Below are positions 1,771 through 31,814 of a stretch of 64,000 bases of DNA, in pieces. The notes below the pieces were generated by a model. The model searched no databases. It saw only the letters and a list, made by a program, of their open reading frames with translations, and had not been told where the DNA came from. Source of the stretch: Myxococcota bacterium. Its GTDB lineage: Bacteria > Myxococcota_A > SURF-8. Position 1 is the stretch's first letter. Each line of letters opens with the position of its first letter. The position numbers and the translations under genes are program-made. The DNA lies in assembly GCA_963674735.2 (NCBI GenBank), contig CAXXQS010000001.1, forward strand, positions 672,001 to 736,000, read 5' to 3'.

Positions 1771-4065
1771 TTAGTCGTCAACGGCATGCATGGAGAACGC
1801 GCTGGTGTAGTCGTTCATCATGGTGGTGTTGATACCGTTGAACTCGAACAGGTCGTCGTAGCTCACGCCGTCCAGTTTGATACCCTGGACCAAGGAGGCG
1901 GACGAAATGTTCACGCCGCGGTTGTCGGTGACTTCCGCCGGTTGATCGAAGTCGAAGCCGCCCTCGTCGTTCGGCCAATAGATGTGCCAGAACTTGACTT
2001 TGGTGGCGTCGTCCGTGTCGTTGCGGATCACGATGCGATGGAAGCTGACATCATCACTGAGCGCGGTGGCGGTGACGGCCAGGTTTTTGGTGGCTGCGGT
2101 GTAAGTATAGTCCGCGTCGCTCATGAAGTCGACGAAGGCCGGCATGGTGACGGATTCAGGCGAGGAGCTGCTCTTCGCCAGGACACCCGACAGGTCGATG
2201 GACATTTCTTCTTTAAGGCTGATGTCGCCAAGCAGACTGTCCAGGGACAGGGCGATACCGAGGAAGTAGTACTCGTAACCCGACAGACCGCTGTGCTGCG
2301 GCGCGAAGGGAACCATGATTTTGCCGTCGTTGTCTTCACCCACTTTGCAGTCGGCGGTGTCGGTACCGGTACGCTTGTCCAGACCCGCAGTGAGGCCCAG
2401 AGGCACGAAGCCGATGCCGCTCTGATTGGCACCCGCCAAGACGATGACGGAGTCGGCGCAGCTGTCGCCGTAATCAGGCAGATTGGCGAAGGTCAGCTCG
2501 GTGCGCTGAGTTTGCGACTGGTTCAGTTTCATGTCGCTGCCGATGTCGGTGAAGTTGGCATAGTCCGGAACCAGGTCGTCGGTGTTGCCGTCGCCGTTGA
2601 GGTCGTCGGCATCGGCGACTTTGGCGATGGCCTGCAGGTCGAAGCCCGGCACGATACCATGATAGAAGCTCTCGAACAGCGGCAGAATCGCGCCCAAGAT
2701 GGCGGCGACGTCGATTTCGTCACCCAGGTTCTGAGTCACGATCTGGATCAGGTCGGCCAGTTTGGCATAACCGCCGAGGCCCCACAGAGTGGCTTTGCCA
2801 GCGACGGCTTCAGCCGAGAAGCCTTCTTTGATCGGGTCGTCCATCAGGTAGCCTTCGAGGCCGCCCGGCAGGGGGATGTTGTCGTCGAGAACCGTACCGA
2901 TCTGCACGTGGGTTTCTTTCATCGTGCCGATCAGGGCTTCGAAGTTCAGGTCGGCCAGGTTGCCGGGGATCGAGAAGCTGGTGAAGCCGAGGCGTACGTC
3001 GTTGTTGCCGACGACCGCTTCGGGGATGGGGCTGGGATCCTGGGCGCCCAAGACGCCGGCGGCCACGGTGTTGTCGCCGTTCGCCGACAGCGGCACGATC
3101 ATGTCTTGCACGGTCAGGCCCATGGCCGACACGTAGGTGTAATCAGCATGGAAAACGTGCATGTCACAGCCACCCGAGCAATCGGTGCTGGCGAAGTTGG
3201 CTACACCGTCGACGGTGTCGACAGCGGTGCCGTCCAAGAACACTTTGGCGCCGGAGAGCAGCTCGCCGGTTTTGTCGTTGAACACCACGACGCGGGCATC
3301 ACCGGCGGTGACGGTCGGGAAGTTCTGGTAGGTGACGGTCGTGTTGACCGCGGTTTTGCAGGTCAGGGTGGCGGTGATGGTGGAGCTACCCGCGGTGTCG
3401 CCACCGGTCAGCACGCCATCGCTGGCGCCAACGGCCACGGCCGCCGGAAGGCTGGAGCCCCAGCTGAACAGAGAATCGCCCACCAACTCGAGCTTCGCGC
3501 CATTGGCGTTGAAGACGGTGGCGGACAGGGTGAGGGTTTCGCCCTGGCGAATCAAACCATTACCTTGGTTGATCTGGATGCTCGTGGCATTGTCGCAGCT
3601 CGGGGCTTGTTCGCAGCCACCGGCCAAGCAAACGAAACCGGTCGGGCAGTCGCCGTTTTCGGTGCAAACGATCGGGTAGCACAGGGCGTCGACCGGATCA
3701 CACTCGAAGTTGGCGCCGTAGGTGGCGCAATCGGCGGTGGTGTTGCATTCGGCTTCTTTGCAAAGGAACAGTTCGTCGTGGCAGGCAAAGCCGTCGCAGC
3801 AGTCTTCATTGGTCTTGCAGGGGGTGTCTTCTTCGCAGGGAACATCGCCATCGGAATCGTCGCCGTCGGAATCACCGTCGGGATCGTCGCCATCGGAATC
3901 GCCGTCGGGACCGTCGCCGTCGGGATCGTCGCCGTCGGGATCGTCGCCGTCGGGATTGTCACCGTCGGGATTGTCGCCGTCGGCAGAGCTGTCATCGCCG
4001 CCGCATCCGGCGAAGACGACCATCGCTAGCAGAACTAGCATAAAGAACAATACGCTTCTCTTCAT
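1771..4065 (-). CDS. Cys-rich, Ig-like domain lipoprotein, paralog 2 (764 aa)
   Basis: Signal peptide with lipobox FAGC, DGD repeats, CxxxxDC modules, Big_2-like segment (WGSSLPAAVAVGASDGVLTGG), carboxypeptidase-regulatory-like segment (GELLSGAKV), DLNGDGNTDD Ca-binding-type loop; RBS AAGGAGGAG. Confidence 0.9.
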   Translation of the reverse strand: MKRSVLFFMLVLLAMVVFAGCGGDDSSADGDNPDGDNPDGDDPDGDDPDGDGPDGDSDGDDPDGDSDGDDSDGDVPCEEDTPCKTNEDCCDGFACHDELFLCKEAECNTTADCATYGANFECDPVDALCYPIVCTENGDCPTGFVCLAGGCEQAPSCDNATSIQINQGNGLIRQGETLTLSATVFNANGAKLELVGDSLFSWGSSLPAAVAVGASDGVLTGGDTAGSSTITATLTCKTAVNTTVTYQNFPTVTAGDARVVVFNDKTGELLSGAKVFLDGTAVDTVDGVANFASTDCSGGCDMHVFHADYTYVSAMGLTVQDMIVPLSANGDNTVAAGVLGAQDPSPIPEAVVGNNDVRLGFTSFSIPGNLADLNFEALIGTMKETHVQIGTVLDDNIPLPGGLEGYLMDDPIKEGFSAEAVAGKATLWGLGGYAKLADLIQIVTQNLGDEIDVAAILGAILPLFESFYHGIVPGFDLQAIAKVADADDLNGDGNTDDLVPDYANFTDIGSDMKLNQSQTQRTELTFANLPDYGDSCADSVIVLAGANQSGIGFVPLGLTAGLDKRTGTDTADCKVGEDNDGKIMVPFAPQHSGLSGYEYYFLGIALSLDSLLGDISLKEEMSIDLSGVLAKSSSSPESVTMPAFVDFMSDADYTYTAATKNLAVTATALSDDVSFHRIVIRNDTDDATKVKFWHIYWPNDEGGFDFDQPAEVTDNRGVNISSASLVQGIKLDGVSYDDLFEFNGINTTMMNDYTSAFSMHAVDD
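3844..3981 (-). repeat. Coding tandem repeat of mainly 15-nt units encoding DGD-x-P/S
   Basis: DGDNP DGDNP DGDDP DGDDP DGDGP DGDS DGDDP DGDS DGDDS DGDV; plus-strand unit resembles TCGCCGTCGGGATCG. Confidence 0.95.
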
Positions 4066-4313: not shown

Positions 4314-6665
4314 CTATTGAGCCGACCTGATCGCATAAGTTGAAAAACGTGTGAAATACCGGTCTATTGTAGCGAGACTAACCTGATTGAAGCCCGCAAA
4401 GTGATCCAGCGATTGATTCGGCTGCATATCCAGCGCCGTGACGCTCAAATGTCCATCCAAAACGTCTTCCAAAGGAGGCTGGGGCAGGTTGATTACCACT
4501 GTATCCCTCTCCGTATCCGGAGTTTCGATGTAAATTTCCCATTGTCGGCCGTTTGCAATTACCCGCAGACGGTGAATGGGAGCGCCTTCCACCGGAATGA
4601 ATTCCAATCGCCGTTCGTCGGTGGTCATGGCGGCATATGTGGGCAAGGCGAGAAAGTCGCCGAACTCGAGTTCTTCCGACTGCCCGTCGTAATCGGCCAC
4701 GATAGCCGAGTAGGATAGCGCGCAATTCTCGGTGGGGAAGAGATCGGCGAATTCCAAGGCGTAGGCGATGGCGGTATACTCGTTTGTCAAACCTCCATAA
4801 TAGGGGGTGAATGGCGTCCACAAATCGCCGCCCATCCCCACTGAAGGTTTATCGAGATGACCGTTTTGAGAGATTTGCTTCATTGCCAACCCAACCGGAA
4901 TGAAAGCTTGTTCCGATGAGAGCAACCGCGATCCGAGGATCGTGAAAACGCCTCCCACCGGTTTGAGATTCATCAGGGGCAATCGCCCGAGGCGCGCCTT
5001 GACTCGCTGATTCATCGGATGAGAAAGCTTCAATTCATCTCCGATACTGAGAAATCCCGCATAATCGGGGACGAAATCGTCAGTCGTGTTGTCTCCGTTG
5101 ATGTCGATCTGATTGGAAGGCTGAGTGTCGCCATTGCCATTATCGGTTAGCATCGGCAGGCTTTCGACCTGAATTCCGGATAATATACCGTGAAAATATT
5201 GGGCCGAGTTGGTGAGTGCCGTAACCACAAAGGCTCCCATGTTCGTCCAGCCATCGTAGATGCTATCGACCACCAAGCTCATATAATCGGTTGCATTGAG
5301 GAATCCACCCAGTCCCCATGCGGCCGGGCTGGACGACGAGCCGGTGGCGTAAATAAGTGTGTTCTCGTCGCCTGCGATGGGATGTAAGCGGATGTTGGCG
5401 GGGAGACTGAGCTGATCGTGGAAAGGTCCGCGCACCGCCGCCGGTTGTAGAAGCGTCGGGCTGAATAAACCGCCGGGAAGCAGGTCGAGCAGGCTGGCGG
5501 TGTAGGCCAGCCCCAAAAGCGACACGAAACCGCTTCGTTGCAGGATTTCGGGGGTTTGTGAAAGATCCGGTGTGCCTTTGATTCCAGCTTTTTGATGAGG
5601 ACCGTCAAAGGGTAGCAACGGCAGCAGCAGGTCTGATTCGGTTAGGTTGATCAGGCTGAGGTAGTGGTAATCCGGATGAAAAACATGAACGCGGTAAGGA
5701 GGCTCCACGTTTTCGAATAAAGCCACTCCGGCGTTGATGTCCTCTGCCGTCAATCGGCTCACGCCATTGACTTCCACCGTTGCACCGCCTACCAGACTGC
5801 CTGAATGTTGTTCAACCAGGATAACCCGCAAACCTTCGTCGATCTGGGCGAAGTTCTGAACCGAAAGCGACACCGACAGTTCGATCCCGGAACAGGCGTC
5901 ATTTTCGAACGCCAGCCGGGCCAGTACGGTGGTGGTACCTGAGATGGGTCCTCCGAGCAGAATGACATTTCCACCGTTTTCCGTAATAATGCTGACCACG
6001 TCGGAGTTCAGCGACCGCCATTCGACCGAAGCCTGGATGGCGGCCAGTTCGGGAAGCGCGGTCCCGGCCGCATCGATGGCGCGGGCCACAACCTGCATAT
6101 GTTGTCCGGTTCGGGTGATCAGCGTACCCGATTCCACGATCAAGTCGGAAAGAGCGGCACATGCCGGGTAGGGCATACAAAAGCCGGTCGTGCAGTAGTG
6201 ACCATCCGGGCATATCTCGTTCCCTGCGCAGGGAATGGGCAGGCACAGACCGCTATCCGAGCAGGTGGAAGCGATCCCGTATTGACCGACGCAGTCCGCC
6301 TGCATCGCGCATTCTTCTGTGCGGCAAACAAAATTGTAAGGATCGCAAGCTGTTGTGGAAGGGCACTCGGCATTTGCTGTGCAGGCGATCGTTTCCTGGA
6401 TGTCGTTGGGAGGCTCGGGGTCGCCATCCATATCGCCATCGGAAGCCGTTGCGGTATCGCCATCCGAAATTGGCGAATCGTTGTTTTCTTGAATGGCGTT
6501 TTCCGAATCGCAGCCCATCAGCCCCGGAAAGACGACGAAAAGAATAAGGATGAAGATAAAATAAAAACCGGATGCAACACGCGAAATGAGCCGGGTGTGC
6601 TCGGATGTGGTTGGCCGGTAAACATGCATGGGTGTAGTACGAATCCTTTCGCCGATTGAGCGCAT
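4314..6665 (-). CDS. Cys-rich, Ig-like domain lipoprotein, paralog 3 (up to 783 aa; start uncertain)
   Basis: Hydrophobic stretch plus LMGC lipobox, DGD motifs, Cys modules. Shares HVFHPDY, AWGLGG, YFHGI, DINGDNTTDDFVPDYA and FIPVGL blocks with paralog 2. Confidence 0.88.
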   Translation of the reverse strand: MRSIGERIRTTPMHVYRPTTSEHTRLISRVASGFYFIFILILFVVFPGLMGCDSENAIQENNDSPISDGDTATASDGDMDGDPEPPNDIQETIACTANAECPSTTACDPYNFVCRTEECAMQADCVGQYGIASTCSDSGLCLPIPCAGNEICPDGHYCTTGFCMPYPACAALSDLIVESGTLITRTGQHMQVVARAIDAAGTALPELAAIQASVEWRSLNSDVVSIITENGGNVILLGGPISGTTTVLARLAFENDACSGIELSVSLSVQNFAQIDEGLRVILVEQHSGSLVGGATVEVNGVSRLTAEDINAGVALFENVEPPYRVHVFHPDYHYLSLINLTESDLLLPLLPFDGPHQKAGIKGTPDLSQTPEILQRSGFVSLLGLAYTASLLDLLPGGLFSPTLLQPAAVRGPFHDQLSLPANIRLHPIAGDENTLIYATGSSSSPAAWGLGGFLNATDYMSLVVDSIYDGWTNMGAFVVTALTNSAQYFHGILSGIQVESLPMLTDNGNGDTQPSNQIDINGDNTTDDFVPDYAGFLSIGDELKLSHPMNQRVKARLGRLPLMNLKPVGGVFTILGSRLLSSEQAFIPVGLAMKQISQNGHLDKPSVGMGGDLWTPFTPYYGGLTNEYTAIAYALEFADLFPTENCALSYSAIVADYDGQSEELEFGDFLALPTYAAMTTDERRLEFIPVEGAPIHRLRVIANGRQWEIYIETPDTERDTVVINLPQPPLEDVLDGHLSVTALDMQPNQSLDHFAGFNQVSLATIDRYFTRFSTYAIRSAQ

Positions 6666-6960
6666 GGATTAAAGGCGTCTCAAAGAAACAAGCAAGAATT
6701 GTACCCTATGCGACAAAGACGAAAAAGACAAGTAATATTAGGCACTACTGGAGACTGCCGGAATGGGCGCAGCGGCGAGAGGGGGGGAGGTCGCGACATC
6801 AATGTCCTACCTGTCAAGTGAAACGTCACGGTGAGAAAATGGTGTATCCGTCATGTATGCTCTTTTTGGTTGTGTAATACTGGTGCTTCGTTTACAATTC
6901 TGGTGTAGGCTAGCGGAAAGATTGGATTCTTAGCCGGTTTCATTCGCGCAGGAGGAAGCA

Positions 6961-7440
6961 ATGGCGGTTCGATGTGGCTGTCAGGTTGTACCGAAGGCGC
7001 AGTGGCATAAACAGCGATTTTCATTTGAGGGCCGCTCATTCTATCGTACTAAAATCATGCAACTCTTTCATAATCCGATCGGATTTCGAAAAGGGATTGA
7101 AAAACTCAGACAAGAAATCGGAATCAAAGAATACCGTTTTGCCGAGAGCAATATGGTTCTACTGAAGGACGGGCTGTTCTCCGGAAAACTGATGATCGAA
7201 ATCATCAAGCCACGTTTTTTCGACCCGAGTATCTACACGTTCGATAAAACAACCTTGCACTCGTTCGTCACTGAGGAACCCTTCGATACTTTGCAGGAAG
7301 AGACCGCTCGTTTCCGAAAAAGGCTGGACGCCCAGGTCAACTCAATCGACAACATCTATTTTTGGCAGACCACCTGTCCGGAATGCGCCAACATTCAAGG
7401 ATATCAGACCGTCATTTTCTTCGAAGAGAGCGAAAGCTGA
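6961..7440 (+). CDS. Small conserved hypothetical protein with N-terminal CxC and C-terminal TTCPEC motif
   Basis: GGAGGA RBS. The C-terminus IYFWQTTCPECA..GYQTVIF resembles the family of small proteins annotated as 'hydrolase' (Bact_hydrolase-like). Confidence 0.65.
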   Translation: MAVRCGCQVVPKAQWHKQRFSFEGRSFYRTKIMQLFHNPIGFRKGIEKLRQEIGIKEYRFAESNMVLLKDGLFSGKLMIEIIKPRFFDPSIYTFDKTTLHSFVTEEPFDTLQEETARFRKRLDAQVNSIDNIYFWQTTCPECANIQGYQTVIFFEESES

Positions 7441-7599
7441 AACGAATCGCGCAAAGGGCGCATTGAACGCATTTCCCCCTGGACAAAACACCCCTGAATT
7501 CGGTAGCCTAACGAGGTTGAACGCCGGAGTTATGTGAGGAAACCGGCGCGTGCGGGCCCTAACAAATCGGATGGCGGATCGTTCAGGAGTGAGAAGGAC

Positions 7600-10500
7600 A
7601 TGTGGAAGAACCGGTGCGAAACGATATGGACGGTGGTCGGGCTCTTGACGGCGGTGCTGCTGATCGTCGGGTGCGGGGAGGCCGGAAGTGAGCTGGACGG
7701 CGATGGGGATTGTAGCGAACTTGCCTGCGGTTCCCATGGGCATTGTGTCGAAGGCGCCGGAGGCGCGGCTTGTGTGTGCGATGAAGGTTACGAGGGAACC
7801 CTCTGCGATCGTTGTGCCGAAGGGTTTCATTGGGAAGGTGACTATTGCATGCCCGGCGGTGCGTGCGACGACGACCCCTGCATCCACGGTCTTTGCGTCG
7901 ATAACAGCGGACGTGCGGAGTGTGTGTGCGATGAGGGGTATGACGGCGATTGGTGCGAGACTTGTGCGCCGGGTTATGTCCCGGATGGCCTGCTCTGTGT
8001 GCCTGCCTCGGCCTGCGATCCCAATCCCTGTATCCACGGCGTCTGTCGCATCGGCGACGACGGGCCGGAGTGTCTGTGCGATACGGGATATGCCGGTGAA
8101 TTCTGTGATGAATGCGCCCCGAGTTATGTTGAGGATGATGGCGAGTGCGTTCCCGATACGGAAAATGCCTGTCTTCCCAATCCTTGTACCGAAAGTCACC
8201 GTAGTCGTTGCATAACCGATGGCGAGGGTTATCGGTGCGATTGCGATGACGGATATTATGACGACAACGGGGTCTGTGTCGAGGGCGCCGGTCCGTGTTT
8301 GCCCAATCCGTGTGAAGAACCCAATCGCGGGGTATGCGAACCGGCTGGCGAGGATAGCTTCGTGTGCCGCTGTGATGTCGGTTATCACGAGGAAAACGGC
8401 GAGTGTGTCGAATCCAGCGCCTGCGAGCCGAATCCCTGCAACATCGTCAACCGGACCATCTGCGTGGAAGCCCAGGACGGCCACGAGTGTTTGTGCGATC
8501 CCAACTATCACCTGGAGGTCGACCTGTGTGTGGCGGACGATGCCTGCCACCCCAATCCCTGCGAGGATCCGAATCGCACCTGGTGTGTCGAGACGCCCGG
8601 CACCTACGATTGCCAATGCGACCCCGGTTATCACGATGATGCCGGTAGTTGCGCGGAGGATACCGTTTGCAACCCGGTTACGACCTGTACGGGACGCGGT
8701 GCCTGCACCGGAAATGGATTGGAATGTGCTTGTGGTGAAGGGTATGCCGGCGATCACTGTGAAATCTGTGACGATGGTTATTACGAATCGAATAACCACA
8801 TCTGCATGTTGCGTACGCCCTGCCAACCCAATCCCTGCAACATCGTTCACACAACCGACTGCCGGGTGGTCGGGGATGATGGTTATGAATGCGGATGTGA
8901 TGACGGATATCAGGATGTCGATGACAACGATACCTGTTTACCGGATTGTTCGACGGCCGCGCTGGATTGCGGGGCTTTCGGCGGCTGCGAAATCGTCGCC
9001 GGAATGGCGAGTTGCGTCTGCGAGCAGGGTTTCGGTGGCACGGCTTGCGATATTCGCGGCTGCACGACGGAAATCGTTTATCGCGACACAAGCGGGACCA
9101 TCCAAAATCTATACATTCGAGGCGAGTTCAACGGCTGGGGCGAGCAGGACAAGATGACGAAAGACGGCGATACCTTCCACATCGTGCTCGATCTGTCGCC
9201 GGGAGATTATGCCTATAAATTCTGGGACAAAGATCACGATACCTGGTTCCGTGACGAGCAGAACCCGTACACCATGTGGGTCGGCGATAGCCGGAACTCG
9301 CGCTTGCGCGTGTTCGATTGCGATGAACCGATGCTCGTTTTATCGGATGAACCGGTTGTGGGGGCAGACTCCATTTCCTTCGATGTGCAATTTATTCGTG
9401 GCAATGGACGAGATGCGCTCGATTCCTCTTCCGTGACCGTCACTCGCAGCGGGGCTTCCTACAGTGCGACTTACGACGAAGCGACTCGCCGTTTTTCCGT
9501 GCGCGATACCAGCCTCGATCCGGGCAAGTATGGTTATTTGTTCAAGGCGGCCGATACGGCGGGACATCCGGCCCGGCCCTTGTTCGCTCCTTTGTGGGTT
9601 GAAAATACGGACTTCGACTGGCGTGACGGTATTATTTATTTCACCATGACCGATCGTTTCAAAAACGGCGATGCCGGAAACGATCAGACCGCCGGGGTGG
9701 AGTGGGCCGCCGAATGGCAGGGAGGCGATTTCGCGGGGATTATCGACAAATTGGAAGACGGCTACTTCGAGAGCCTGGGCGTCAACGTTTTGTGGATTTC
9801 CTCTATCAGCGAAAATACGCCGGGTACGGGTGCGGGAATGAGTGACGGCCACATGTATTCGGGTTATCACAGCTACTGGCCGATCAGCAGCGGTTGGACC
9901 GACGACAACCCGCTTGCGGGTGTCGAACCGGTCGATCCGCATTTTGGCGATTTGGACGAATTTCGTGAGTTGGTCGAGGCGGCGCACGCACGCGGGATTC
10001 GCGTCCTGGTCGATTTTGTGGCCAACCACGTGCATGCCAGTCACCCGTTTTATGTCGATCATCAAAACGACGGTTGGTTCCATATGCCGCCGCGTATGTG
10101 TGGCGACAGCACGGGAGGGCAGTCCAATTGGGATGTGATTCCCATCGAATGCTGGTTCACCGACTATTTGCCGGATTTGGAGTACAAAAGCCTGGATGTC
10201 ACCAAGGCCATGACGGATCATGCGGTGTGGCTGGTACAGGAAACCAACATCGACGGTTTTCGCATGGATGCCGTGAAACATATGATCCATGATATCGGTT
10301 GGACGCTACGTGCGCGTATCGACGAAGAAGTGGATACGACCGGCGACACACGTTTTTACATGGTGGGTGAAACATTTACCGGCGAGGGACAGGAAGACTT
10401 GATTCTTGCCTACATTGGCGAGGACGAGTTGGACGGCCAATTCGATTTCCCGCTGTATTGGAATGTCATGGCGGCTTTCCTGCACGAGTCGCGTGATTTA

Positions 10501-11130
10501 AGCGCCTTATCGGGTATGTTGGCCAGCAACGAAGCTTACTATCCCGATAGCGCCATTTTGAGCAATTTCATGGGTAATCACGACGTGGCACGGGCGATTT
10601 CGCAGGCCGATGGTAACATTGGCGATGCGTGGAGTAATCCGCCGGATTTGCCCAACAGTGACCAGCCGTTTGATCGCATGAAACTGGCCTGGAGCTTCTT
10701 GTTCACCATTCCCGGTTTACCGCTGATTTACTACGGTGATGAAATCGGCATGCCCGGTTCGGGCGATCCCGACAATCGCCGCATGATGATGTTCGAACCG
10801 TCGTTGAGCGCGCGACCGCAGGATATGCTGGATCACGTGCGCTTGCTGGGGCAGATTCGGCGCGATCATCCGGTTTTGGCGCGCGGCCTGCGCAGTACCC
10901 TCTATGTGACGTCCACCTTCTGGGCTTACGGATTGCAGTACGGCAGCCAAAAAGCGGTGGTCGTGCTCAATCGATCGAACGGCACGCAAAGCCAATCGGT
11001 CAACCTGTCGTCGCTCGGTATCACGTCGGGGACACTCACCGACCAGTTGAATGGAGGAACGGTCAGTGTGTCGGGTGGTTCGGCCACGATTTCGGTGGAA
11101 CCATACGATGCGCGGATTCTCGTTCCTTGA
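7600..11130 (+). CDS. Lipoprotein alpha-amylase family (GH13) with about 10 EGF-like repeats and a CBM48-like domain
   Basis: ATG 7600 after GAAGGA; lipobox LIVGC; EGF-like array; YIRGEFNGW..YAYKF (CBM48/E-set); GH13 motifs DFVANH, DGFRMDAVKH, VGETF, FMGNHD, PLIYYGDEIG. Confidence 0.92.
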   Translation: MWKNRCETIWTVVGLLTAVLLIVGCGEAGSELDGDGDCSELACGSHGHCVEGAGGAACVCDEGYEGTLCDRCAEGFHWEGDYCMPGGACDDDPCIHGLCVDNSGRAECVCDEGYDGDWCETCAPGYVPDGLLCVPASACDPNPCIHGVCRIGDDGPECLCDTGYAGEFCDECAPSYVEDDGECVPDTENACLPNPCTESHRSRCITDGEGYRCDCDDGYYDDNGVCVEGAGPCLPNPCEEPNRGVCEPAGEDSFVCRCDVGYHEENGECVESSACEPNPCNIVNRTICVEAQDGHECLCDPNYHLEVDLCVADDACHPNPCEDPNRTWCVETPGTYDCQCDPGYHDDAGSCAEDTVCNPVTTCTGRGACTGNGLECACGEGYAGDHCEICDDGYYESNNHICMLRTPCQPNPCNIVHTTDCRVVGDDGYECGCDDGYQDVDDNDTCLPDCSTAALDCGAFGGCEIVAGMASCVCEQGFGGTACDIRGCTTEIVYRDTSGTIQNLYIRGEFNGWGEQDKMTKDGDTFHIVLDLSPGDYAYKFWDKDHDTWFRDEQNPYTMWVGDSRNSRLRVFDCDEPMLVLSDEPVVGADSISFDVQFIRGNGRDALDSSSVTVTRSGASYSATYDEATRRFSVRDTSLDPGKYGYLFKAADTAGHPARPLFAPLWVENTDFDWRDGIIYFTMTDRFKNGDAGNDQTAGVEWAAEWQGGDFAGIIDKLEDGYFESLGVNVLWISSISENTPGTGAGMSDGHMYSGYHSYWPISSGWTDDNPLAGVEPVDPHFGDLDEFRELVEAAHARGIRVLVDFVANHVHASHPFYVDHQNDGWFHMPPRMCGDSTGGQSNWDVIPIECWFTDYLPDLEYKSLDVTKAMTDHAVWLVQETNIDGFRMDAVKHMIHDIGWTLRARIDEEVDTTGDTRFYMVGETFTGEGQEDLILAYIGEDELDGQFDFPLYWNVMAAFLHESRDLSALSGMLASNEAYYPDSAILSNFMGNHDVARAISQADGNIGDAWSNPPDLPNSDQPFDRMKLAWSFLFTIPGLPLIYYGDEIGMPGSGDPDNRRMMMFEPSLSARPQDMLDHVRLLGQIRRDHPVLARGLRSTLYVTSTFWAYGLQYGSQKAVVVLNRSNGTQSQSVNLSSLGITSGTLTDQLNGGTVSVSGGSATISVEPYDARILVP
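7711..9048 (+). repeat. Array of about 10 EGF-like Cys modules (6-Cys and 8-Cys types)
   Basis: Repeated C-x-PNP-C...C-x-C-x-x-GY...C units counted in the translation. Confidence 0.9.
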
Positions 11131-11144
11131 GTGGAGGTTGACTG

Positions 11145-13799
11145 ATGCGGTGGATTGCAGTGATCGGATGGATTGCGTGGACGGTGACGCTGTTTTCCTG
11201 CGATGAAAGCGGGCAGGATGGCGACTCTCCCTGTTTCGGCATCGACTGTTCGTCTCATGGCGTGTGCGTGGAAGATGGGGATGCTTTTATTTGTGAATGC
11301 CACGGCGGTTACACCGGGGAGCTTTGCGAGCTCTGCGAAATCGGTTTGGTGATGGTTGAGGGACAATGCGTTCCTGCTGGCGAGAGTCCATGCATTCCCA
11401 ACCCCTGTGAACATGGAACCTGTTCGGTCCAGGACGACGGGATTTCGATTGCCTGCGAATGCATGCAAGGCTTTGCAGGGGATCTATGCGATCGCTGTGC
11501 CGACGACTACCTCGACGATGGCTCGGGTGACTGCATCGCGGTCGACGGCGATAATCCTGCCGATGGAGACGTTCCAGACGGCGACAGCTCGGATGGCGAT
11601 ATGTCCGATGGTGATTTTTTAGACGGCGATACTGATGGCGATACCGAGGGTGATTTCGATGTCGAGGATGTGGATGTCTGCATTCCCAATCCCTGCACCG
11701 ATCTGCACAAAACCGTTTGTGTGCCCAACGATGATACCTTTTCTTGTTCCTGCGAACCGGGCTATTCGGAAACGGCAGGCCTATGCGTTCCCGACTGCGA
11801 TGTCGAGGCTGGATTGTGCAGCGCCGCCCACGACTCGGCCCCCAAACTTGTTAGTGCTAACGGATATTCCGCCGTCGCCTGGGACAAGACCTCACGCAAA
11901 ATCGACACGTTTCTCGAACATATGTACCGCAATTGGGATGAGGATGTGTGGACGCGCGACTTGCTCTTCGATAGTTATTTCGGGCTGCGCTACGACGGGA
12001 CGGGCAAATGGCTCGACACGGTCGAGCCGTTGCATGTCGGGTATTTGCGCGAAAGCGGTGTCATTCACCTTGTACGCGACCTGAGCGGACTACGGGTCGA
12101 GACCTTCGTTTACGCGCCTTTCGAGATCGATGCAGCGGCGATGGTGATGTTGATCAAAGTAACCAACACCCGCAGCCAAGCAGCGGATGTGTCGCTGTAT
12201 TCGTTGCACAATGCCCATCTCGGTTACACCAGCGCGGAAGATCCGGTCAATCCCGATGCCGAGGATGAAAGCATCATTCGCGATGCCAGCGGCGCATGGG
12301 TGGAAAAGGGCGTTGGCGGAACGCTTGTCTATCGCTCGTTCGAACTACCCAGCCATGCCGGATGCTCACCCCAGAATCCCTATCAGGCTTTGCTCGATGG
12401 GCATGATCTAGCCGACAATACCGGCGATGTCGCGGTTGGAGACGATCGTGTGGCAGGCTTCCAAAAAGATGTCCACCTGGAACCGGGCTCCATCGGCTGG
12501 TTCGGTGTCGCGATGGCCTATCATCCGGGTGATGACGCGGTGTCCCTTTTAGCGAAACTTGAAACCGTATATGGCGATAAAACATCCGAAACGGTACTGG
12601 CCGAAGCCGTCGATGCCTGGGAGACTTGGCGTGTCGCGCCTCCCGCCGGGCTGTCACCGGCCGAACTTGCCGTCTACCGGCAATCGGAAGCGGTATTGCG
12701 GATGGGGCAGGTACGCGAGAACTCCGATTTGTCGTATGGTCAGATTTTGGCATCCATGCCGCCGGGCAATTGGAATATCTGCTGGATGCGCGATATGGCC
12801 TACGCCATTGTGGCATTGGCACGAAGTGGGCATGCCGTCGAGGCGCGCGCGGCGCTGGAATTCGTCTTGAATGCGGACAGTGGCTACTATGAAAGTTATA
12901 GCGGTGTGCCCTATCAGGTGACTATCACGCGCTATTTCGGGCGTGGAAAAGAAGAGACCGACTCCAACGAAAACGGGCCCAACATCGAATACGACGGATT
13001 CGGATTGTTTTTATGGGCCCTGGCCGAAACGATGGCTGCCGAAGGCGATACAAGCCTGCTTGACGACAACTGGGTTGTCGTACGGGACAAAATCGCCGGG
13101 GCGTTGGTCGATCTTGTCGATGACTCCAACATGATCGGCCCGGACAGCTCCATCTGGGAGGTCCACTGGAACGGCCAGCAAAAGCACTACAGCTATACAA
13201 CTCTCACGGCTGCCAATGGATTGTGTGCCATTTCTCCTGCGGTGCGTTCGTTAGGCCATGGTGTGGAAGCCGATTTCTACGAAACAGCCGCAGCCGGATT
13301 GCGTAATGCTCTGAAGGCCGGTTGTGTCGACAACGCCAATGTCTTGGCCAGTTCTATCGAAGAGTTGACCAATGGTTGGGGGCATTACGATGTCGCGACA
13401 GTGGAAGCCTTCAATTGGCCGATTCTCGATCCATCGGGGGGAGTGGCCGACGCGACTTTTGCCATGTATGACAGCCACCTCCAAGTGGCCAGCGGCCACG
13501 GCTATTTTCGTAACGACGACGGCGGTTGGTATGATTCGCAGGAATGGGTTTTCGTCGATCTGCGAGCGGCGCGGGCGTTGCGTCGTGCCGGGGAAACCGC
13601 TAAAGCCGATGCTCTGCTCGATTGGATCACCGCACAGGCCTTGGCCAACCAGGGGCTTATCAGCGAATTGCACCATCCCACCAGCGGAGACTACGAAGGC
13701 GAATATCCCATGGTCGGCTTCGGAGCCGGAGCCTATCTTCTGGCGATCTTCGAACGACTCGATCCATCGGCCGTATCTGCCGCTTGCGGGGATTGGTAG
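11145..13799 (+). CDS. Lipoprotein glucoamylase/glucodextranase family (GH15) with 3 EGF-like modules and a DGD linker
   Basis: GGAGG RBS; lipobox LFSC; GH15 motifs WNICWMRD, DSSIWEVHW (acid Glu), GLISEL (base Glu). Confidence 0.88.
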   Translation: MRWIAVIGWIAWTVTLFSCDESGQDGDSPCFGIDCSSHGVCVEDGDAFICECHGGYTGELCELCEIGLVMVEGQCVPAGESPCIPNPCEHGTCSVQDDGISIACECMQGFAGDLCDRCADDYLDDGSGDCIAVDGDNPADGDVPDGDSSDGDMSDGDFLDGDTDGDTEGDFDVEDVDVCIPNPCTDLHKTVCVPNDDTFSCSCEPGYSETAGLCVPDCDVEAGLCSAAHDSAPKLVSANGYSAVAWDKTSRKIDTFLEHMYRNWDEDVWTRDLLFDSYFGLRYDGTGKWLDTVEPLHVGYLRESGVIHLVRDLSGLRVETFVYAPFEIDAAAMVMLIKVTNTRSQAADVSLYSLHNAHLGYTSAEDPVNPDAEDESIIRDASGAWVEKGVGGTLVYRSFELPSHAGCSPQNPYQALLDGHDLADNTGDVAVGDDRVAGFQKDVHLEPGSIGWFGVAMAYHPGDDAVSLLAKLETVYGDKTSETVLAEAVDAWETWRVAPPAGLSPAELAVYRQSEAVLRMGQVRENSDLSYGQILASMPPGNWNICWMRDMAYAIVALARSGHAVEARAALEFVLNADSGYYESYSGVPYQVTITRYFGRGKEETDSNENGPNIEYDGFGLFLWALAETMAAEGDTSLLDDNWVVVRDKIAGALVDLVDDSNMIGPDSSIWEVHWNGQQKHYSYTTLTAANGLCAISPAVRSLGHGVEADFYETAAAGLRNALKAGCVDNANVLASSIEELTNGWGHYDVATVEAFNWPILDPSGGVADATFAMYDSHLQVASGHGYFRNDDGGWYDSQEWVFVDLRAARALRRAGETAKADALLDWITAQALANQGLISELHHPTSGDYEGEYPMVGFGAGAYLLAIFERLDPSAVSAACGDW
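11544..11660 (+). repeat. Coding DGD-xx repeat linker
   Basis: DGDNPA DGDVP DGDSS DGDMS DGDFL DGDT DGDT EGDFD. Confidence 0.9.
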
Positions 13800-13808
13800 G
13801 CCGACGAG

Positions 13809-15986
13809 ATGGCAGATTGTCGCGTAAAATATGTGTGCATATCTGTTGTTGCACTATGTGTGATAGGGCTGGTTGCCTGCGACAACGACAAAGGAAATTT
13901 AAGTGATTATCGGCGCGATTGCCGTTTGACAGTAGTTTATGAACCGACCCCCGGTGAATCCCCTCCCTTCGATCTCATTGGTGATTTCAATGACTGGCAG
14001 CCCGGTCAAACACGCCTTCGCGACGCCGATGGCGATGGCTTGTACGTCGCGCGTCTCGATCTGCCGCCAGGACCGGTGTTTTATCGTCTGCGTATCAATG
14101 GTGAAGACCGTCTGGATACCGGCAATCCCCTCACCGCATATGATGAAAACGGCGTCGAGCAGTCTTTCGCGCGCATTGCGGATTGTTCGACGCCTGCGTT
14201 GCGTGTCGGCGACGTCGGTGTTGTCGATAGCCGAATCGAGGCCACGGCGGCTTTTCTGCGGGTGGAACTGGATTCGCCGTTGGCCGTTGATTCTGTGCAG
14301 GCACTGGCTCGCGGTGGGGCGGTTCTGGACGTCACGGCGGAGGCTGATCCGGGGACTTTGGTTATACAGGGGGCACTGCCTCTCGGAAAGTCGTGGATCG
14401 ATATCCGCGCGGAAGATAGGGATGGTCGCCCGGCCGAGGTTTCATTTCCGGTCTGGAACGAAGCAACGCCTTTTACCTGGCGCGATGCGGTGATCTATCA
14501 GGTGGTGGTGGATCGCTTTCGGCGCGGTGGTGGGTCGCTCGATGCGTCGGCTTCCATTGCACAATATCAGGGCGGCGATCTCGATGGTGTGCGCGAGGCG
14601 GTGGAAGAAGGCTACTTCGAATCGTTGGGTGCAAACGTGCTATGGCTGTCGCCGCTTTATGACAATCCGGATGGGAGTTATCTGGGGCTCGATAATCGCT
14701 GGTACGAAGCCTATCATGGCTATTGGCCCATTGCTCCACGAACGGTGGAAGCGCGTTTCGGCGGACCCGAGGCGCTGGATCGGCTGGTGGCGGCGTGTCA
14801 CGAGCGAGGCATCCGAGTTCTGATGGATTTGGTTCCCAATCATGTGCATGTCGATCATCCCTATTTCATCGACCATGCCGCCGACGGCTGGTTCAACGCT
14901 CCCGATGGGTCGTGTGTTTGCGGGCGGGGAACATGTAGCTGGGCGGACGATATCGAGCGGTGTTGGTTTACGGAATATCTGCCCGATCTGGATTTTAAAA
15001 ACTTAGAGGTGATCGAGCAATCGTGTTCCGATGCCGTGGCTTGGTTGACACGCTTCGATTTGGACGGTTTTCGCATCGATGCCGTTCCCATGATGCCGCG
15101 TCTCGCCACTCGCCATTTGCGTGACGCTCTGCACGTGGCAGGCGAACTTGGCAACGAACGAGTCTTTTTATTAGGTGAAACTTACACCGGAGCAACGGGA
15201 CATGGAAAAATCCGCTGGTATCTCGGTCCGCAAGGATTGGACGGCCAATTCGATTTTCCACTTATGTGGGTGCTCCGTGAAACCATTGCCCATGGAAATG
15301 GTAATATGATGGATCTCGAAAACATCATTGCCGAAAGCGAAGCAGCTTGGGCCGGAGCGGATGCGCACATGGGGTTGATCGTCGGCAATCATGACGTCAC
15401 GCGTTTTATTTCCGAGGCGGCGGGTGATGATACTTCGGATGCCTGGGGATCGCCGCCGCCGACGCCTTCGAGTTCAGGGGTCTTTGCCAAATTGAGGTTG
15501 GCCTACACGGTAATCATGACTTTGGCCGGGGCTCCGATCATCTACTATGGCGATGAGGTCGGATTGGCCGGGGCCGGAGATCCCGATTGCCGTCGGCCAT
15601 TTCCCAATAAAAACGAGCTTTCAGACCTTGCGCAAGCGTTGCGGCGAGACGTGGGGCGTTTGGCACGTGCGCGTTCTTTTTCGTGGGCTTTACGCGGCGG
15701 AGCCCGGCAGGCGCTCAAAATCGAAGACGATACCTACGTCTATATGCGTCTTGCTCCGGGAACCGATCTGGCGGTTGTGGCTCTCAATCGAGGAGCCAAA
15801 GCGACGCAAATCACGTTTGATATCCCGCCGCAAGCACAGTCGATCATCTCTGACGCACTTGTGGATTTGTTCGGAACGGAGGTCGCTTGGTCGGGGACGA
15901 CAGTCTCCTTGACACTTCCTCCTCGTTCCGCAGCGCTCTTACTTCCTCCCGGAGTGATGGCCAAATTGGAGAATGACGAACCATGA
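13809..15986 (+). CDS. Lipoprotein alpha-amylase family (GH13) with a CBM48-like domain and no EGF stalk
   Basis: Lipobox LVAC; LIGDFNDW; DLVPNH, DGFRIDAVPMM, LGETY, VGNHD, PIIYYGDEVG. Confidence 0.9.
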   Translation: MADCRVKYVCISVVALCVIGLVACDNDKGNLSDYRRDCRLTVVYEPTPGESPPFDLIGDFNDWQPGQTRLRDADGDGLYVARLDLPPGPVFYRLRINGEDRLDTGNPLTAYDENGVEQSFARIADCSTPALRVGDVGVVDSRIEATAAFLRVELDSPLAVDSVQALARGGAVLDVTAEADPGTLVIQGALPLGKSWIDIRAEDRDGRPAEVSFPVWNEATPFTWRDAVIYQVVVDRFRRGGGSLDASASIAQYQGGDLDGVREAVEEGYFESLGANVLWLSPLYDNPDGSYLGLDNRWYEAYHGYWPIAPRTVEARFGGPEALDRLVAACHERGIRVLMDLVPNHVHVDHPYFIDHAADGWFNAPDGSCVCGRGTCSWADDIERCWFTEYLPDLDFKNLEVIEQSCSDAVAWLTRFDLDGFRIDAVPMMPRLATRHLRDALHVAGELGNERVFLLGETYTGATGHGKIRWYLGPQGLDGQFDFPLMWVLRETIAHGNGNMMDLENIIAESEAAWAGADAHMGLIVGNHDVTRFISEAAGDDTSDAWGSPPPTPSSSGVFAKLRLAYTVIMTLAGAPIIYYGDEVGLAGAGDPDCRRPFPNKNELSDLAQALRRDVGRLARARSFSWALRGGARQALKIEDDTYVYMRLAPGTDLAVVALNRGAKATQITFDIPPQAQSIISDALVDLFGTEVAWSGTTVSLTLPPRSAALLLPPGVMAKLENDEP

Positions 15987-16363
15987 AACGACAGTTCTAT
16001 TTGATTGTCTTGATGCTGATGTTGGGAGCGATCCTCCTGTTGTCGGTTGCCTGCGGTGATGGTGGGGACGACCCGGACGGCGATAGCTCGGATTGGGAGG
16101 ACGGTGATGTGGACCGGGTGGATGTATGGGATCCCGGAGACTCTCCCGATGGTGACGATTGTGGATATTCAGGTGGATATGGGAGCGATTGCCAACCCGA
16201 GGGCGAAGGGGTCGACTGTACCCGAAACCCTTGTGTGTATGGAGTTTGTCGTACGGTTAACGGCAAAGGGGTTTGCGATTGTTCGACCGGCTATACCGGC
16301 AGATTTTGCGATGCCTGTGCCGAGAGTTACGTGGCGCGCAATCTTGAGTGCGTCCCGGAATGA
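15983..16363 (+). CDS. Small lipoprotein made of a DGD linker and one EGF-like module
   Basis: ATGA overlap with the upstream stop; lipobox SVAC; CTRNPCVYGVC..CDCSTGYTGRFCDAC..C. Confidence 0.85.
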   Translation: MKRQFYLIVLMLMLGAILLLSVACGDGGDDPDGDSSDWEDGDVDRVDVWDPGDSPDGDDCGYSGGYGSDCQPEGEGVDCTRNPCVYGVCRTVNGKGVCDCSTGYTGRFCDACAESYVARNLECVPE

Positions 16364-16399
16364 TGGGGGGGGTGATCGGACCTGTTAACGGTTTCCGAA

Positions 16400-17293
16400 T
16401 CATTTCCGGAAATGCAGTGAATGCTCAAGTTCTTCAGCCTGCTGCCGATTTATCAAACCGCGACTTTGCATGTTTTCAAACTGACTTTGCAGGTTGGGCT
16501 CACTGACGCTTGATTTCCATTCCTGAGCTGTTTCCAACACAACGCTTTTGTCAAGATAACCAGAAATCCACAGATGAATTGCCATTTGAAACGGACTCTG
16601 ACATGCGGTCAAAACAGGTCCGAAAATCTTGTAGTCTGCGGGATTCGTTCCCATACTGAGATAAATATAGATCTGTTTTACGCAGTTCCCAGGGTAGCCA
16701 ACCGCTTTTGCTGCAGAGAGGACATCGGCAATCGTTTCAGGTGGGCAGCCTTCCTGATGCAGAGTATTTTCGAGATTGAAATCGTCCAGTTCGCCGGACA
16801 ACCGGCGTGCATACAGTGAATAGGCCAGCGCGTCCTGTTCGGTATCGTCGCCGATCAATATTTCAGTACACCGTTTAGGCAGGTGTTGGCGTTGATGAAA
16901 CAGAGCTGCCAGCTTGTAGGGCAGCTGCATCTTCAACCAGCGGGGTTTCCGGCGGCGGACGATCAGGTCTTGCCAGTCCTTGAAGGTGATACCGTCATAT
17001 TGCACGCCGTCCAAAAGCATTTTTCGGGATAATGCTTTAAACAGGAAAAGAGGGCTGGCCGTAATAAAATAGAGTGGTGTCAATCCCGGTTCGAAAATGC
17101 GCAATCCCTTTAAAAGAGGCGTCATTCCGATCATTGCGTGCTTATCCTCACCCCATTCCAGGGGAATACGCAGGAGCCCTTTCATTGAGTGGAAGTCGGT
17201 GTCGAGATAGGTTTTATCCACATCGCACGTAACGACTAAGCCAGCATATTCGTCATCCAACAAACGGTGGTTGATGCGTTTGAGGGGAAACAT
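16400..17293 (-). CDS. HAD-superfamily phosphatase, App1/LNS2 (phosphatidate phosphatase)-like
   Basis: DVDKT (DxDxT), ITASP and IGDDTEQD motifs; TGATG coupling to the upstream gene. Confidence 0.75.
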   Translation of the reverse strand: MFPLKRINHRLLDDEYAGLVVTCDVDKTYLDTDFHSMKGLLRIPLEWGEDKHAMIGMTPLLKGLRIFEPGLTPLYFITASPLFLFKALSRKMLLDGVQYDGITFKDWQDLIVRRRKPRWLKMQLPYKLAALFHQRQHLPKRCTEILIGDDTEQDALAYSLYARRLSGELDDFNLENTLHQEGCPPETIADVLSAAKAVGYPGNCVKQIYIYLSMGTNPADYKIFGPVLTACQSPFQMAIHLWISGYLDKSVVLETAQEWKSSVSEPNLQSQFENMQSRGLINRQQAEELEHSLHFRK

Positions 17294-22730: not shown

Positions 22731-22820
22731 CGTCTCAAACTCCTTTCAACGGGAATTCATCACACAGTGTATCTGTCACAAAATCCTGTTTGCATGATCA
22801 GAAAAATCAAGGTCAACACC

Positions 22821-28295: not shown

Positions 28296-28307
28296 AGGAG
28301 GACAAAC

Positions 28308-31334: not shown

Positions 31335-31367
31335 TCCAAGCGGCATCGTCGCTGGGTGAGGAGATGA

Positions 31368-31814
31368 ATGATGCAAATTCCTAGAGAAGACTGGCAGCCC
31401 AAGATCGTGGCCTTTCTCTGCAATTGGTGCACGTATGGTGCGGCCGACCTGGCAGGCGTGAATCGCTTGCAATATCCGCCGAACTTCAAAGTTATCCGGG
31501 TGCCTTGCTCGGGACGGATCAGTCCCAAGCTGATTATGGCCGCGTTCCGTAATGGAGCGGACGGTGTGTGGGTGTCGGGTTGTCATCCGGGTGATTGTCA
31601 CTATATAGAAGGCAACCTGTACGCACGTCGTAAGTTTGCCATGTTCCGCAACCTCTTCAATTACATCGGTATCGATGAACGCCGTCTGCATTTCTCCTGG
31701 ATTTCGTCCGCCGAAGGCACGAAATTCGCCGCAGTGGCCAACGAAGTGGTCGAGGCCGTCCGGGAAGCCGGACCGGCCCATCAGCTGATCAAAGAAAAGG
31801 CACAGGTGGTGTGA
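31368..31814 (+). CDS. flxD: MvhD/FlxD-like [2Fe-2S] protein
   Basis: AFLCNWC, IRVPCSGR, GADGV, GCHPGDCHY, WISSAEG. Confidence 0.9.
   Translation: MMQIPREDWQPKIVAFLCNWCTYGAADLAGVNRLQYPPNFKVIRVPCSGRISPKLIMAAFRNGADGVWVSGCHPGDCHYIEGNLYARRKFAMFRNLFNYIGIDERRLHFSWISSAEGTKFAAVANEVVEAVREAGPAHQLIKEKAQVV

Follow-up and report, generated by a model that had tools for sequence, protein, structure and literature searches.

A four-gene operon from an uncultured Myxococcota bacterium encodes a set of α-glucan-degrading lipoproteins, two of which carry their catalytic parts on stalks of epidermal growth factor (EGF)-like modules. The genes occupy positions 7600–16363 on the + strand of a 64-kb stretch of contig CAXXQS010000001.1 (assembly GCA_963674735.2, positions 672,001 to 736,000), which we call the window and to which the coordinates below refer unless a related locus is named. 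We consider it probable, at roughly 0.6, that the operon serves the utilization of α-1,4/1,6-glucans (starch, glycogen, and maltodextrin) by enzymes tethered through lipid anchors to the cell surface, with the EGF arrays acting as spacers. A preliminary description, made from the DNA alone, had proposed a membrane-anchored degradation apparatus of this kind, with stalks of graded length and, tentatively, glycogen of prey or necromass as a target. Its lipoprotein set stands, in that both glycoside hydrolase family 13 (GH13) enzymes keep the catalytic Asp/Glu/Asp and all four proteins have a lipobox; its ladder of stalk lengths does not, as described below.

The four genes are closely spaced and codirectional, as first described. 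Gene A (open reading frame (ORF) 7534/7600–11130, +) encodes a lipoprotein GH13 α-amylase on a 10-module EGF stalk, 1176 residues long when read from the ATG at 7600. It is followed by gene B (11145–13799, +), which encodes an 884-residue lipoprotein with a GH15-like catalytic part, by gene C (13809–15986, +), which encodes a 725-residue lipoprotein of the GH13 α-amylase family without EGF modules, and by gene D, or P4 (15983–16363, +), which encodes a 126-residue lipoprotein with one module. The gaps of 14 nt between A and B and 9 nt between B and C, together with the 4-nt overlap of C and D (–4), fit a single transcript in which the translation of C and D is coupled. A scan of 6600–16600 for promoter and terminator consensus sequences returned 6 and 9 sites, respectively, versus 6.6 and 9.2 in shuffled sequences, and thus no excess. 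The ATG at 7600 is most likely the start of gene A; AGGAG precedes it, and the database copy of the product (P0124, 1176 residues) begins at the same codon.

To count EGF-like modules we used a six-cysteine regular expression, cross-checked with a profile hidden Markov model (HMM) built from 41 modules. Both give 10, 3, 0, and 1 modules for the products of genes A, B, C, and D. The Pfam EGF profile (PF00008; cut-off 21.5 bits) recognizes gene A at 67.9 bits (8.8e-19) and gene B at 29.9 bits (6.9e-07). For gene D, the scores with EGF (17.7 bits) and EGF_laminin (19.2 bits) are both below cut-off, and its two-module orthologue at the related locus L002 reaches 33.3 bits with EGF, above it. The modules open with C-x-P-N-P-C after short proline-containing linkers and come in two types, a 6-Cys form and a laminin-EGF-like 8-Cys form with an extra CxxC...C tail. 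Written by cysteine number, the order is 8-8-8-6-6-6-6-8-6-6 in A, 8-8-[linker]-6 in B, and 8 in D. In the structure models of A and B, each module shows two β-hairpins. The array of gene A (7711–9048, +), whose 10 modules are found by regular expression and HMM and are joined by linkers of 3–7 residues, is modeled with a predicted local distance difference test score (pLDDT) of about 70–90. Modules 1 and 2 of gene B, both of the 8-Cys type (11232–11534, +; residues 30–75 and 83–130), have pLDDT values of about 72–94 in 10-residue blocks. The third, a 6-Cys module (11679–11786, +; residues 179–214), adjoins the catalytic part and is modeled at 93–98; its six cysteines are invariant in 39 EGF-type orthologues.

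The EGF pattern matches genes A, B, and D only in the whole 64-kb window, and an HMM scan of flanks of up to 10 kb at 80 related loci found no module outside amylolytic ORFs. Because the pattern is confined to these genes both in the window and in the flanks of the relatives, it does not reflect chance matches, and the observation is real and specific. In related metagenome-assembled genomes (MAGs), arrays like that of gene A are fused to GH13, GH15, GH57, and GH31 enzymes and to clostripain-like peptidases, as well as to PPC/T9SS-tail proteins and to FGE-sulfatase, lectin, and leucine-rich repeat domains. Examples are P0141–P0143, P0149, and P0156 in Myxococcota MAGs and P0212 of Persicimonas caeni. 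With arrays found on so many unrelated proteins, the stalk is a general module of this Myxococcota MAG group. The stalks of the gene A-type GH13, GH15, and GH57 enzymes have one module order, namely 6-Cys, then 8-Cys modules, then 6-Cys modules.

The two GH13 enzymes both match the Pfam Alpha-amylase profile (3.9e-43 for gene A and 9.1e-42 for gene C). The catalytic domain of gene A lies at 9643–10761 (+; residues 704–1076 of P0001, by Pfam), with regions I–IV reading DFVANH, GFRMDAVKHM, GETFT, and MGNHD; regions II–IV and the D..NH core of region I are kept in all 28 aligned orthologues. In gene C, the corresponding regions read DLVPNH, GFRIDAVPMM, GETYT, and VGNHD. The catalytic Asp/Glu/Asp of regions II, III, and IV is conserved in the 28 aligned orthologues of gene A and the 18 of gene C. 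Region II of gene C has DAVPMM in place of DAVKH, and where GH13 enzymes normally carry Lys-His, its orthologues show Pro-Met or something close to it (DAVPMMPR), the Lys-His pair occurring in 0 of 18; judged by sequence, this variant marks a distinct predicted subgroup of GH13. The closest sequences in the PDB are Geobacillus and Anoxybacillus α-amylases, 4e2o and 5a2a for gene A (7e-62) and 5a2b for gene C (1.4e-38). The gene A model (pLDDT 78.5) is matched by Foldseek to 5a2a with a TM-score of 0.82 normalized on the target, and Sus-type GH13 structures are also among its matches. Gene A further contains a carbohydrate-binding module of the CBM48 type (AMPK1_CBM, PF16561), whose best-matching stretch lies at 9103–9225 (+) and which scores 32.9 bits, or 36.7 on a sub-region, above the cut-off of 26.8. 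Pfam, regular expression, and HMM therefore bear out the GH13–CBM48 protein with about 10 EGF modules of the preliminary description. The same domain pair had been claimed for gene C without modules; the GH13 domain and the absence of modules hold there, but its CBM48-like N-terminal domain falls below threshold (16.7 bits versus 26.8).

The product of gene B is built of two EGF modules, a DGD-repeat linker, a third EGF module, a β-sandwich, and an (α/α)6 barrel, in that order. The acidic linker (11535–11678, +; residues 131–178) contains a period-45 repeat detected by Tandem Repeats Finder (TRF) at 11560–11643 and is modeled as disordered, residues 136–167 (pLDDT < 50) being the sole low-confidence internal stretch. 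The AlphaFold2 model, built on an alignment of 119 family members, has a pLDDT of 91.7 and a predicted template modeling score (pTM) of 0.83; it places the strands of the β-sandwich at residues 234–460 and the 12 helices of the barrel (12537–13760, +) at residues 505–872. The Pfam Glyco_hydro_15 profile (PF00723) matches at 27.9 bits (1.5e-06), weakly but above its cut-off of 22, and NCBIfam glucoamylase/trehalase models score far below theirs (34.9 versus 820.7). A single-sequence search of the PDB returned weak matches of the EGF modules to Notch (E ~2e-3) and none for the catalytic part. By fold, the dextran dextrinase structure 9ju0 ranks first in Foldseek (E 1e-26, 16% identity), followed by GH94 phosphorylases, which have the same architecture and similar scores, and then by 1ug9 (2.8e-21) and 1lf6 (3.3e-21); identity to solved GH15 members is 13–16%. 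The family profile found only 9ju0 in the PDB (2e-09). The three modules, the linker, and the GH15 assignment first given to gene B are thus real, the weak family match being confirmed by the fold.

The motifs WxRD and SIWE and the residues Glu672 and Glu841 are invariant in 119 sequences of the gene B family. In the profile alignment, the invariant WxRD and SSIWE motifs fall on the Arg/Asp that bind sugar in 9ju0 and on its acid catalyst, with Glu672, in SSIWE, aligned to the latter. According to the dextran dextrinase study (PMC12446779), the general acid of GH15 enzymes is a glutamate in the α5–α6 loop and the general base a glutamate in the α11–α12 loop. Putative catalytic residues of gene B are Glu672, in its α5–α6 loop, and Glu841, in its modeled α11–α12 loop; the latter is a candidate base by virtue of the model and its invariance and not of an alignment, and a profile search for this residue at E up to 10 gave only a marginal match to the isomaltose glucohydrolase 5z3c (E 0.24). 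In that study, the residue after the base is Gln in inverting enzymes and Ser in the dextrinase; in the gene B family it is an invariant Leu. The dextrinase is described there as a retaining transglucosidase and not a hydrolase, with the Phe-Tyr dyad of the α9–α10 loop and the Gly-Glu dyad of the α11–α12 loop as hallmarks of this activity. In the gene B family, Trp-Tyr (GGWYD) takes the place of the former and Ser/Ala-Glu-Leu that of the latter, and the gene B model lacks the N1 domain, which helps to position the nucleophile and is present in about half of the dextran-dextrinase cluster (PMC12446779). Sequence and model together suggest that gene B encodes a divergent GH15-fold α-glucosidase, which would more probably act as an inverting exo-hydrolase. 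Of the exo-acting GH15 enzyme originally proposed, the GH15 fold is sound and the exo-hydrolysis insecure, as the nearest solved relative by both profile and fold is a transglucosidase.

The small protein encoded by gene D consists of a lipobox, an acidic linker, a conserved WDPG...GYG...C motif, and one 8-Cys EGF module (residues 79–123). Its length and single module had already been described, and the regular expression and HMM agree on the latter even with Pfam EGF below threshold. The family comprises 22 database proteins, all of them lacking a functional name; they are usually 164–183 residues long with two 8-Cys modules and share the lipobox, the acidic linker, and the motif WDPG...C..GYGYG..C. 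Among 7,497 ORFs, the WDPG...GYGYG motif is confined to this family. Of 26 sources of the EGF type, made up of 25 loci and the window, 18 have gene D; none of the 55 others does. At loci L016 and L022, where gene C is present, the GH15 enzyme carries almost no EGF modules and gene D is absent, so that the presence of gene D follows the stalks and not gene C.

Of the 8000 candidates scored against the catalytic part of gene B, 603 are database relatives with E ≤ 0.001. Where the 120 entries listed, the query P0002 included, carry a source name, it is that of a Deltaproteobacteria, Myxococcales, Polyangia, or Polyangiaceae MAG, one source being given simply as "bacterium." Among these 120, 44 have 1–9 EGF modules and no C-terminal anchor, and 76 have no EGF modules; at their C terminus, most of the latter have a Cys motif followed by a hydrophobic stretch and an Arg-rich tail, a combination designated MYXO-CTERM in the sources. 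A FastTree phylogeny of the catalytic columns of 119 rows (the GH13–GH15 fusion P0112 was left out) splits with a support of 100 into an EGF-lipoprotein clade of 49 rows and a sister clade of 70. The former consists of 44 EGF-type proteins and 5 that start inside the catalytic domain, one of which the tail pattern wrongly labels as MYXO; the latter has 56 members with a MYXO-CTERM-like tail, 14 unlabeled ones, and 0 with EGF modules. A switch of the entire enzyme set to MYXO-CTERM in this sister clade was also considered and rejected, since the tail occurs in 0 of 47 neighboring GH13 ORFs; a lenient pattern finds a lipobox-like start in 32 of the 47.

Taking one genome per species, we found 254 loci that encode a gene B relative and kept the best 80, which derive from Myxococcota-type MAGs except for L019, L041, L050, and L074. 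The closest of these 80 is L001, with 57% identity over the best tblastn segment and 64% over the catalytic part by blastp. The full A-B-C-D order is found at 13 of them (L001, L002, L004, L005, L006, L014, L015, L018, L020, L023, L028, L040, and L054) and part of it at 5 (L003, L008, L009, L017, and L026), so the operon, whose synteny the preliminary description had left to be checked, is conserved in Myxococcota MAGs. At seven related loci (L002, L003, L004, L005, L011, L012, and L018), a further enzyme with 4–9 EGF modules lies upstream of the operon. It is a GH57 enzyme at the four that were scanned (L002 3729–6506, L003 2991–6485, L011 4502–7462, and L018 2648–6130); the window has no such EGF-stalked GH57 gene. 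Some of the upstream GH57 enzymes have a C-terminal starch-binding-like Ig domain (PF23166; 25.6 bits and sub-threshold in L018). GH13 and GH15-like enzymes also occur as single polypeptides, either as EGF-CBM48-GH13-GH15 proteins of 1551 residues (L011 7481–12136 and L012 7478–12136) or as GH15-CBM48-GH13 proteins of about 1510–1580 residues at several MYXO-type loci; further named fusion loci are L053 (361–4899), L048, L063, L067, L075, and L077. Natural fusions in both forms point to a functional link between the GH13 and GH15-like enzymes.

The relatives also supply an uptake context. A gene for a LamB maltoporin (PF02264, 2e-28) directly follows the gene D orthologue at 12 EGF-type loci and is itself followed by another GH13 gene and, at some of them, by MalK-like and solute-binding/permease genes. 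Within the fetched loci, a LamB-like ORF is found at 46 of 80, MalK-like genes at 13, and solute-binding/permease genes at 8. No SusC-type TonB-dependent transporter, SusD, cohesin, or dockerin was found among the 42 window ORFs scanned, which agrees with what had been noted at the outset.

Each of the four proteins has, by pattern, a lipobox cysteine after a basic and hydrophobic N terminus (IVGC in A, LFSC in B, LVAC in C, and SVAC in D). In gene A, the signal peptide and lipobox match the pattern at 7600–7674 (+), with the cysteine at residue 25 of P0124. The pattern recurs in 24 of 28 orthologues of gene A, 37 of 39 of gene B, 12 of 18 of gene C, and 14 of 16 of gene D, the misses being mostly truncated or over-extended starts. 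According to PMC3222651, Lys at the +2 position is an inner-membrane retention signal in Myxococcus xanthus; we see it once among the orthologues, in which the +2 residue is not conserved. Gene B ends in ...ACGDW, without a MYXO-CTERM tail. Such a tail routes proteins to the surface of the cell by means of the type II secretion system of M. xanthus (PMC11980579), and the CglD protein is described as a lipoprotein of the cell surface whose Cys-rich stalk contains EGF-like repeats (bioRxiv 10.1101/2023.10.19.562135). The MYXO-CTERM-like tail of the sister clade, the CglD precedent, and the rarity of Lys at +2 support surface display indirectly. The surface anchoring first proposed is thus borne out as far as the lipobox pattern in all four proteins goes; display itself is suggested indirectly, by the sister-clade tail and the LamB genes of the relatives.

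The number of modules varies widely among loci. By regular expression, the A/B/C/D counts are 10/3/0/1 in the window, 11/2/0/1 in L001, 7/5/0/2 in L002, L004, and L005, 7/6 in L003 (where the contig ends), 6/4/0/2 in L006, 6/7/0/2 in L014 and L054, 10/3/0/2 in L015, 10/9/0/2 in L018, and 6/6/0/2 in L020, L023, L028, and L040; HMM counts differ from these by at most 1. Overall, the GH13 enzyme of gene A has 5–11 modules and the GH15 enzyme 2–9. With L013 set aside because its frame runs into the next gene, gene C has 0 modules in all 21 cases, one of them the window, and the small protein has 1–2 in 18 of 18. Across the 15 loci with both stalked enzymes, gene A has more modules than gene B in 9, as many in 1, and fewer in 5 by HMM. 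The claim of graded length accordingly fails by the measure proposed with it, the conservation of the count order among orthologous operons. Conservation extends to the choice of genes that bear modules and not to a fixed ladder.

Even close relatives differ in module number (for example, 7 versus 4 and 7 versus 6), and such evolutionary lability suggests that absolute height is probably tuned per lineage, with no fixed three-tier ladder. The arrays themselves are old, since TRF finds no DNA-level tandem repeats in them and most modules of the window are closest to their positional counterparts in other genomes, at 50–69% identity. On the same two observations, recent tandem duplication was rejected as the source of the module counts. 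The sum of the A and B modules is 12–13 at 13 of 15 loci by regular expression (rho –0.53, p 0.04, uncorrected for relatedness). A constant sum was nonetheless set aside, because p rises to 0.12–0.15 once close relatives are collapsed, and the relation is possibly due to chance.

These observations suggest the following scheme for the tethered surface system. The proteins would be exported and lipidated, after which their disulfide-rich modules would fold in the oxidizing envelope, and all four would be presented on the external side of the outer membrane. There, the EGF arrays would form semi-rigid, disulfide-braced spacers that keep the amylase with CBM48 and the GH15-like enzyme off the membrane. 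An EGF module measures 2–3 nm, and at this size the stalk of gene A would reach some 20–30 nm. The stalked enzymes would thereby probably clear the layer of lipopolysaccharide and exopolysaccharide and reach insoluble or large glucans. Labor may be divided such that the CBM48-bearing amylase attacks the polymer, the GH15-like enzyme trims chain ends, and the stalkless GH13 enzyme of gene C works close to the membrane on released dextrins. Products would enter through a LamB-type maltoporin and an importer of the MalK/solute-binding/permease kind, presumably encoded in another part of this genome. The small EGF protein, which occurs only with EGF-stalked enzymes, most likely interacts with the stalks or organizes them, and this is the least certain step of the scheme.

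Several observations weigh against this scheme. In the products of genes B and C, the +2 residue is Asp, an inner-membrane retention signal in Escherichia coli (PMC3222651), and the proteins could face the periplasm; the surface lipoprotein PulA, however, also has Asp at this position, as the title of a reference in the same paper states. Neither LamB nor MalK nor a solute-binding homologue was found in the 64-kb window by tblastn, and none was found at the L001 locus, so the link to uptake rests on the relatives. As the MYXO-CTERM orthologues are free of the N-terminal EGF stalk, the enzyme can do without a long one, and the inconsistent order of module numbers (9/1/5 of 15) speaks against a fixed tiered design. 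The modules also fall short of the calcium-binding EGF consensus (EGF_CA 17.8 bits versus a cut-off of 27), and the sole solved structure found by sequence profile for gene B, 9ju0, belongs to a retaining transglucosidase.

The Asp residues at +2 lend themselves to an account in which the enzymes are periplasmic. As lipoproteins that face the periplasm from either the inner or the outer membrane, they would process maltodextrins admitted by a porin, with the EGF arrays positioning them inside the periplasm. MalS of E. coli processes maltodextrins in the periplasm, and the LamB genes beside the enzymes of the relatives could equally feed such a pathway. The inverse module counts of A and B could, moreover, arise from anchors on opposite membranes; this inverse relation, however, is not significant with close relatives collapsed (p 0.12–0.15), and orthologues differ in their +2 residue. 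Polymeric glucans cannot pass a maltoporin, yet CBM48, several endo-amylases, and the GH57 enzymes of the relatives point to polymeric substrates. The sister clade bears a tag for cell-surface sorting, and a 10-module array, at 2–3 nm per module, would have a length close to the width of the periplasm. We therefore regard a periplasmic location as unlikely. Still less do we favor an anabolic or remodeling role, which strikes us as improbable. Here, a GH15-like transglucosidase at the surface would turn maltodextrins into α-1,6-glucan, as a matrix or a hoard of glucose. The dextran dextrinase is the top Foldseek match of gene B (1e-26) and the sole PDB sequence found by profile (2e-09), a Trp795-Tyr796 pair stands where its cluster has the Phe-Tyr dyad, and the native dextrinase is reported to have extracellular and cell-surface forms (PMC12446779). 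The identity to 9ju0 is just 16%, however; Ser/Ala-Glu-Leu replaces the Gly-Glu dyad at the nucleophile, the N1 domain is absent from the model, and the linkage to maltoporin and ABC importer genes in the relatives fits catabolism.

The arrays might instead serve interaction and bind each other, organized by the small EGF protein, in a multi-enzyme complex or in attachment to matrix or prey; judged from the sequences, this too appears unlikely. The small protein is little beyond a linker, a family-specific motif, and 1–2 8-Cys modules of the membrane-proximal type; it is found with the EGF-type enzymes (18 of 26 sources, against 0 of 55 others) and is missing where the stalks are nearly gone, in L016 and L022, and one module order is common to the gene A-type GH13, GH15, and GH57 stalks. 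A generic spacer would nevertheless explain the same arrays on many unrelated enzymes at least as well, and module number is labile. A broader version, which we consider distinctly speculative and doubtful, combines the two ideas. In it, the EGF stalk would be a general, length-adjustable tether in a clade of uncultured Myxococcota, fixing the distance at which lipid-anchored amylases, GH15, GH57, and GH31 enzymes, and peptidases are kept from the cell surface, and the small protein would bundle their 8-Cys modules into an "amylosome" free of cohesin and dockerin.

The lipid-tethered surface reading that we prefer can be set beside several known systems. Functionally, the nearest are Klebsiella PulA with LamB/MalEFGK and, after it, the Sus system of Bacteroides; architecturally, the nearest are CglD and TraA. 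PulA is displayed at the cell surface, and its products are taken up via LamB/MalEFGK. It is likewise a starch-active GH13 lipoprotein at the surface of a diderm, whose products pass through a maltoporin and an ATP-binding cassette (ABC) importer. PulA is, however, a single debranching enzyme without an EGF or Cys-rich stalk, whereas here there are three enzymes and a small EGF protein, and porin and importer genes are adjacent in relatives only. SusG, a GH13 amylase and surface lipoprotein, has a starch-binding module and stands beside an outer-membrane uptake channel. It differs in having no EGF stalk; neither SusC nor SusD was found among the 42 window ORFs scanned, and the relatives use a LamB-type porin. 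Amylosomes and cellulosomes of Gram-positive bacteria similarly hold several polysaccharide-degrading enzymes at the cell surface, but do so through cohesins and dockerins, of which the same scan found none; each enzyme of the operon has its own predicted lipid anchor, and an assembly based on EGF modules is hypothetical.

Among the architectural relatives, CglD and TraA come from the same phylum and are lipid-anchored surface proteins with a functional head on a disulfide-rich repeat stalk, TraA combining Cys-rich repeats with MYXO-CTERM (PMC11980579). They are an adhesin and a recognition receptor, respectively, and not enzymes. The solved GH15 enzymes (1lf6, a glucoamylase; 1ug9, a glucodextranase; and 9ju0) share with gene B the N-terminal β-sandwich and (α/α)6 barrel, WxRD, and (S)IWE, and Glu672 and Glu841 are putative counterparts of their two loop glutamates. 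Gene B differs from them in its 13–16% identity and in the Leu after the putative base, and the EGF stalk or MYXO-CTERM-like tail is peculiar to its clade. A full-text literature search, in which subscription journals were thinly covered, returned no report of EGF-stalked glycoside hydrolases. The possibility, raised in the preliminary description, that the architecture had already been characterized in myxobacteria thus applies to stalked proteins that are not enzymes, such as CglD and TraA; stalked glycoside hydrolases were not found. What appears new is the tether with its lability, the swap of anchors, a divergent clade of GH15 enzymes, and the small protein with its EGF modules; the substrate biology is ordinary.

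The window holds further genes around the operon. Directly 5′ of it, a 159-residue "Bacterial hydrolase" (PF20603, 3.8e-14) is encoded at 6961–7440 (+); L001 has a helix-turn-helix regulator at this position, so the flanks are not conserved. Just upstream on the opposite strand lie genes for three large paralogous lipoproteins (3–1580, 1771–4065, and 4314–6665, all –), each of which has a lipobox, an acidic linker of the PDGD type, and a non-EGF region rich in cysteine. No Pfam family matched any of the three, one shows a sub-threshold match to TIGR04201, a myxobacterial Cys-rich repeat (E 5e-4, 20.1 bits versus a cut-off of 25), and an ESM Atlas look-up of an upstream paralogue gave a best score of 0.78, below lead level. 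Farther downstream, 20199–26089 (–) holds Ntn-hydrolase-type genes, namely a penicillin-amidase-family gene (1.5e-184), then an unassigned 409-residue ORF, then a gene for an AAT-domain protein. A cluster at 27003–34710 (+) encodes heterodisulfide-reductase-like and Fe-S/FAD oxidoreductases (CCG, many 4Fe-4S, Pyr_redox_2, and DHODB-type Fe-S domains) and suggests an anaerobic-type electron-transfer module in a genome of about 54% GC. A GH31 gene of the α-glucosidase type lies at 49841–52075 (–), 34 kb from the operon; a GH31 enzyme fused to an EGF array (P0200) exists in a related MAG.

Should the proteins be periplasmic or the stalk dispensable, the finding would amount to an ordinary maltodextrin operon with decorative domains. 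Were the general tether and its "amylosome" real, on the other hand, they would be a bacterial counterpart of the EGF-stalked surface proteins of eukaryotes. Comparison across genomes amounts to a natural experiment, in which the same enzyme is found either on an N-terminal lipid with an EGF stalk or with a C-terminal MYXO-CTERM-like tail, and in which the stalk of the GH15 enzyme spans 1–9 modules among orthologues. The operon thereby raises the questions of how much stand-off distance matters in the degradation of insoluble polymers and how bacteria make use of disulfide-rich modules that resemble those of eukaryotes.

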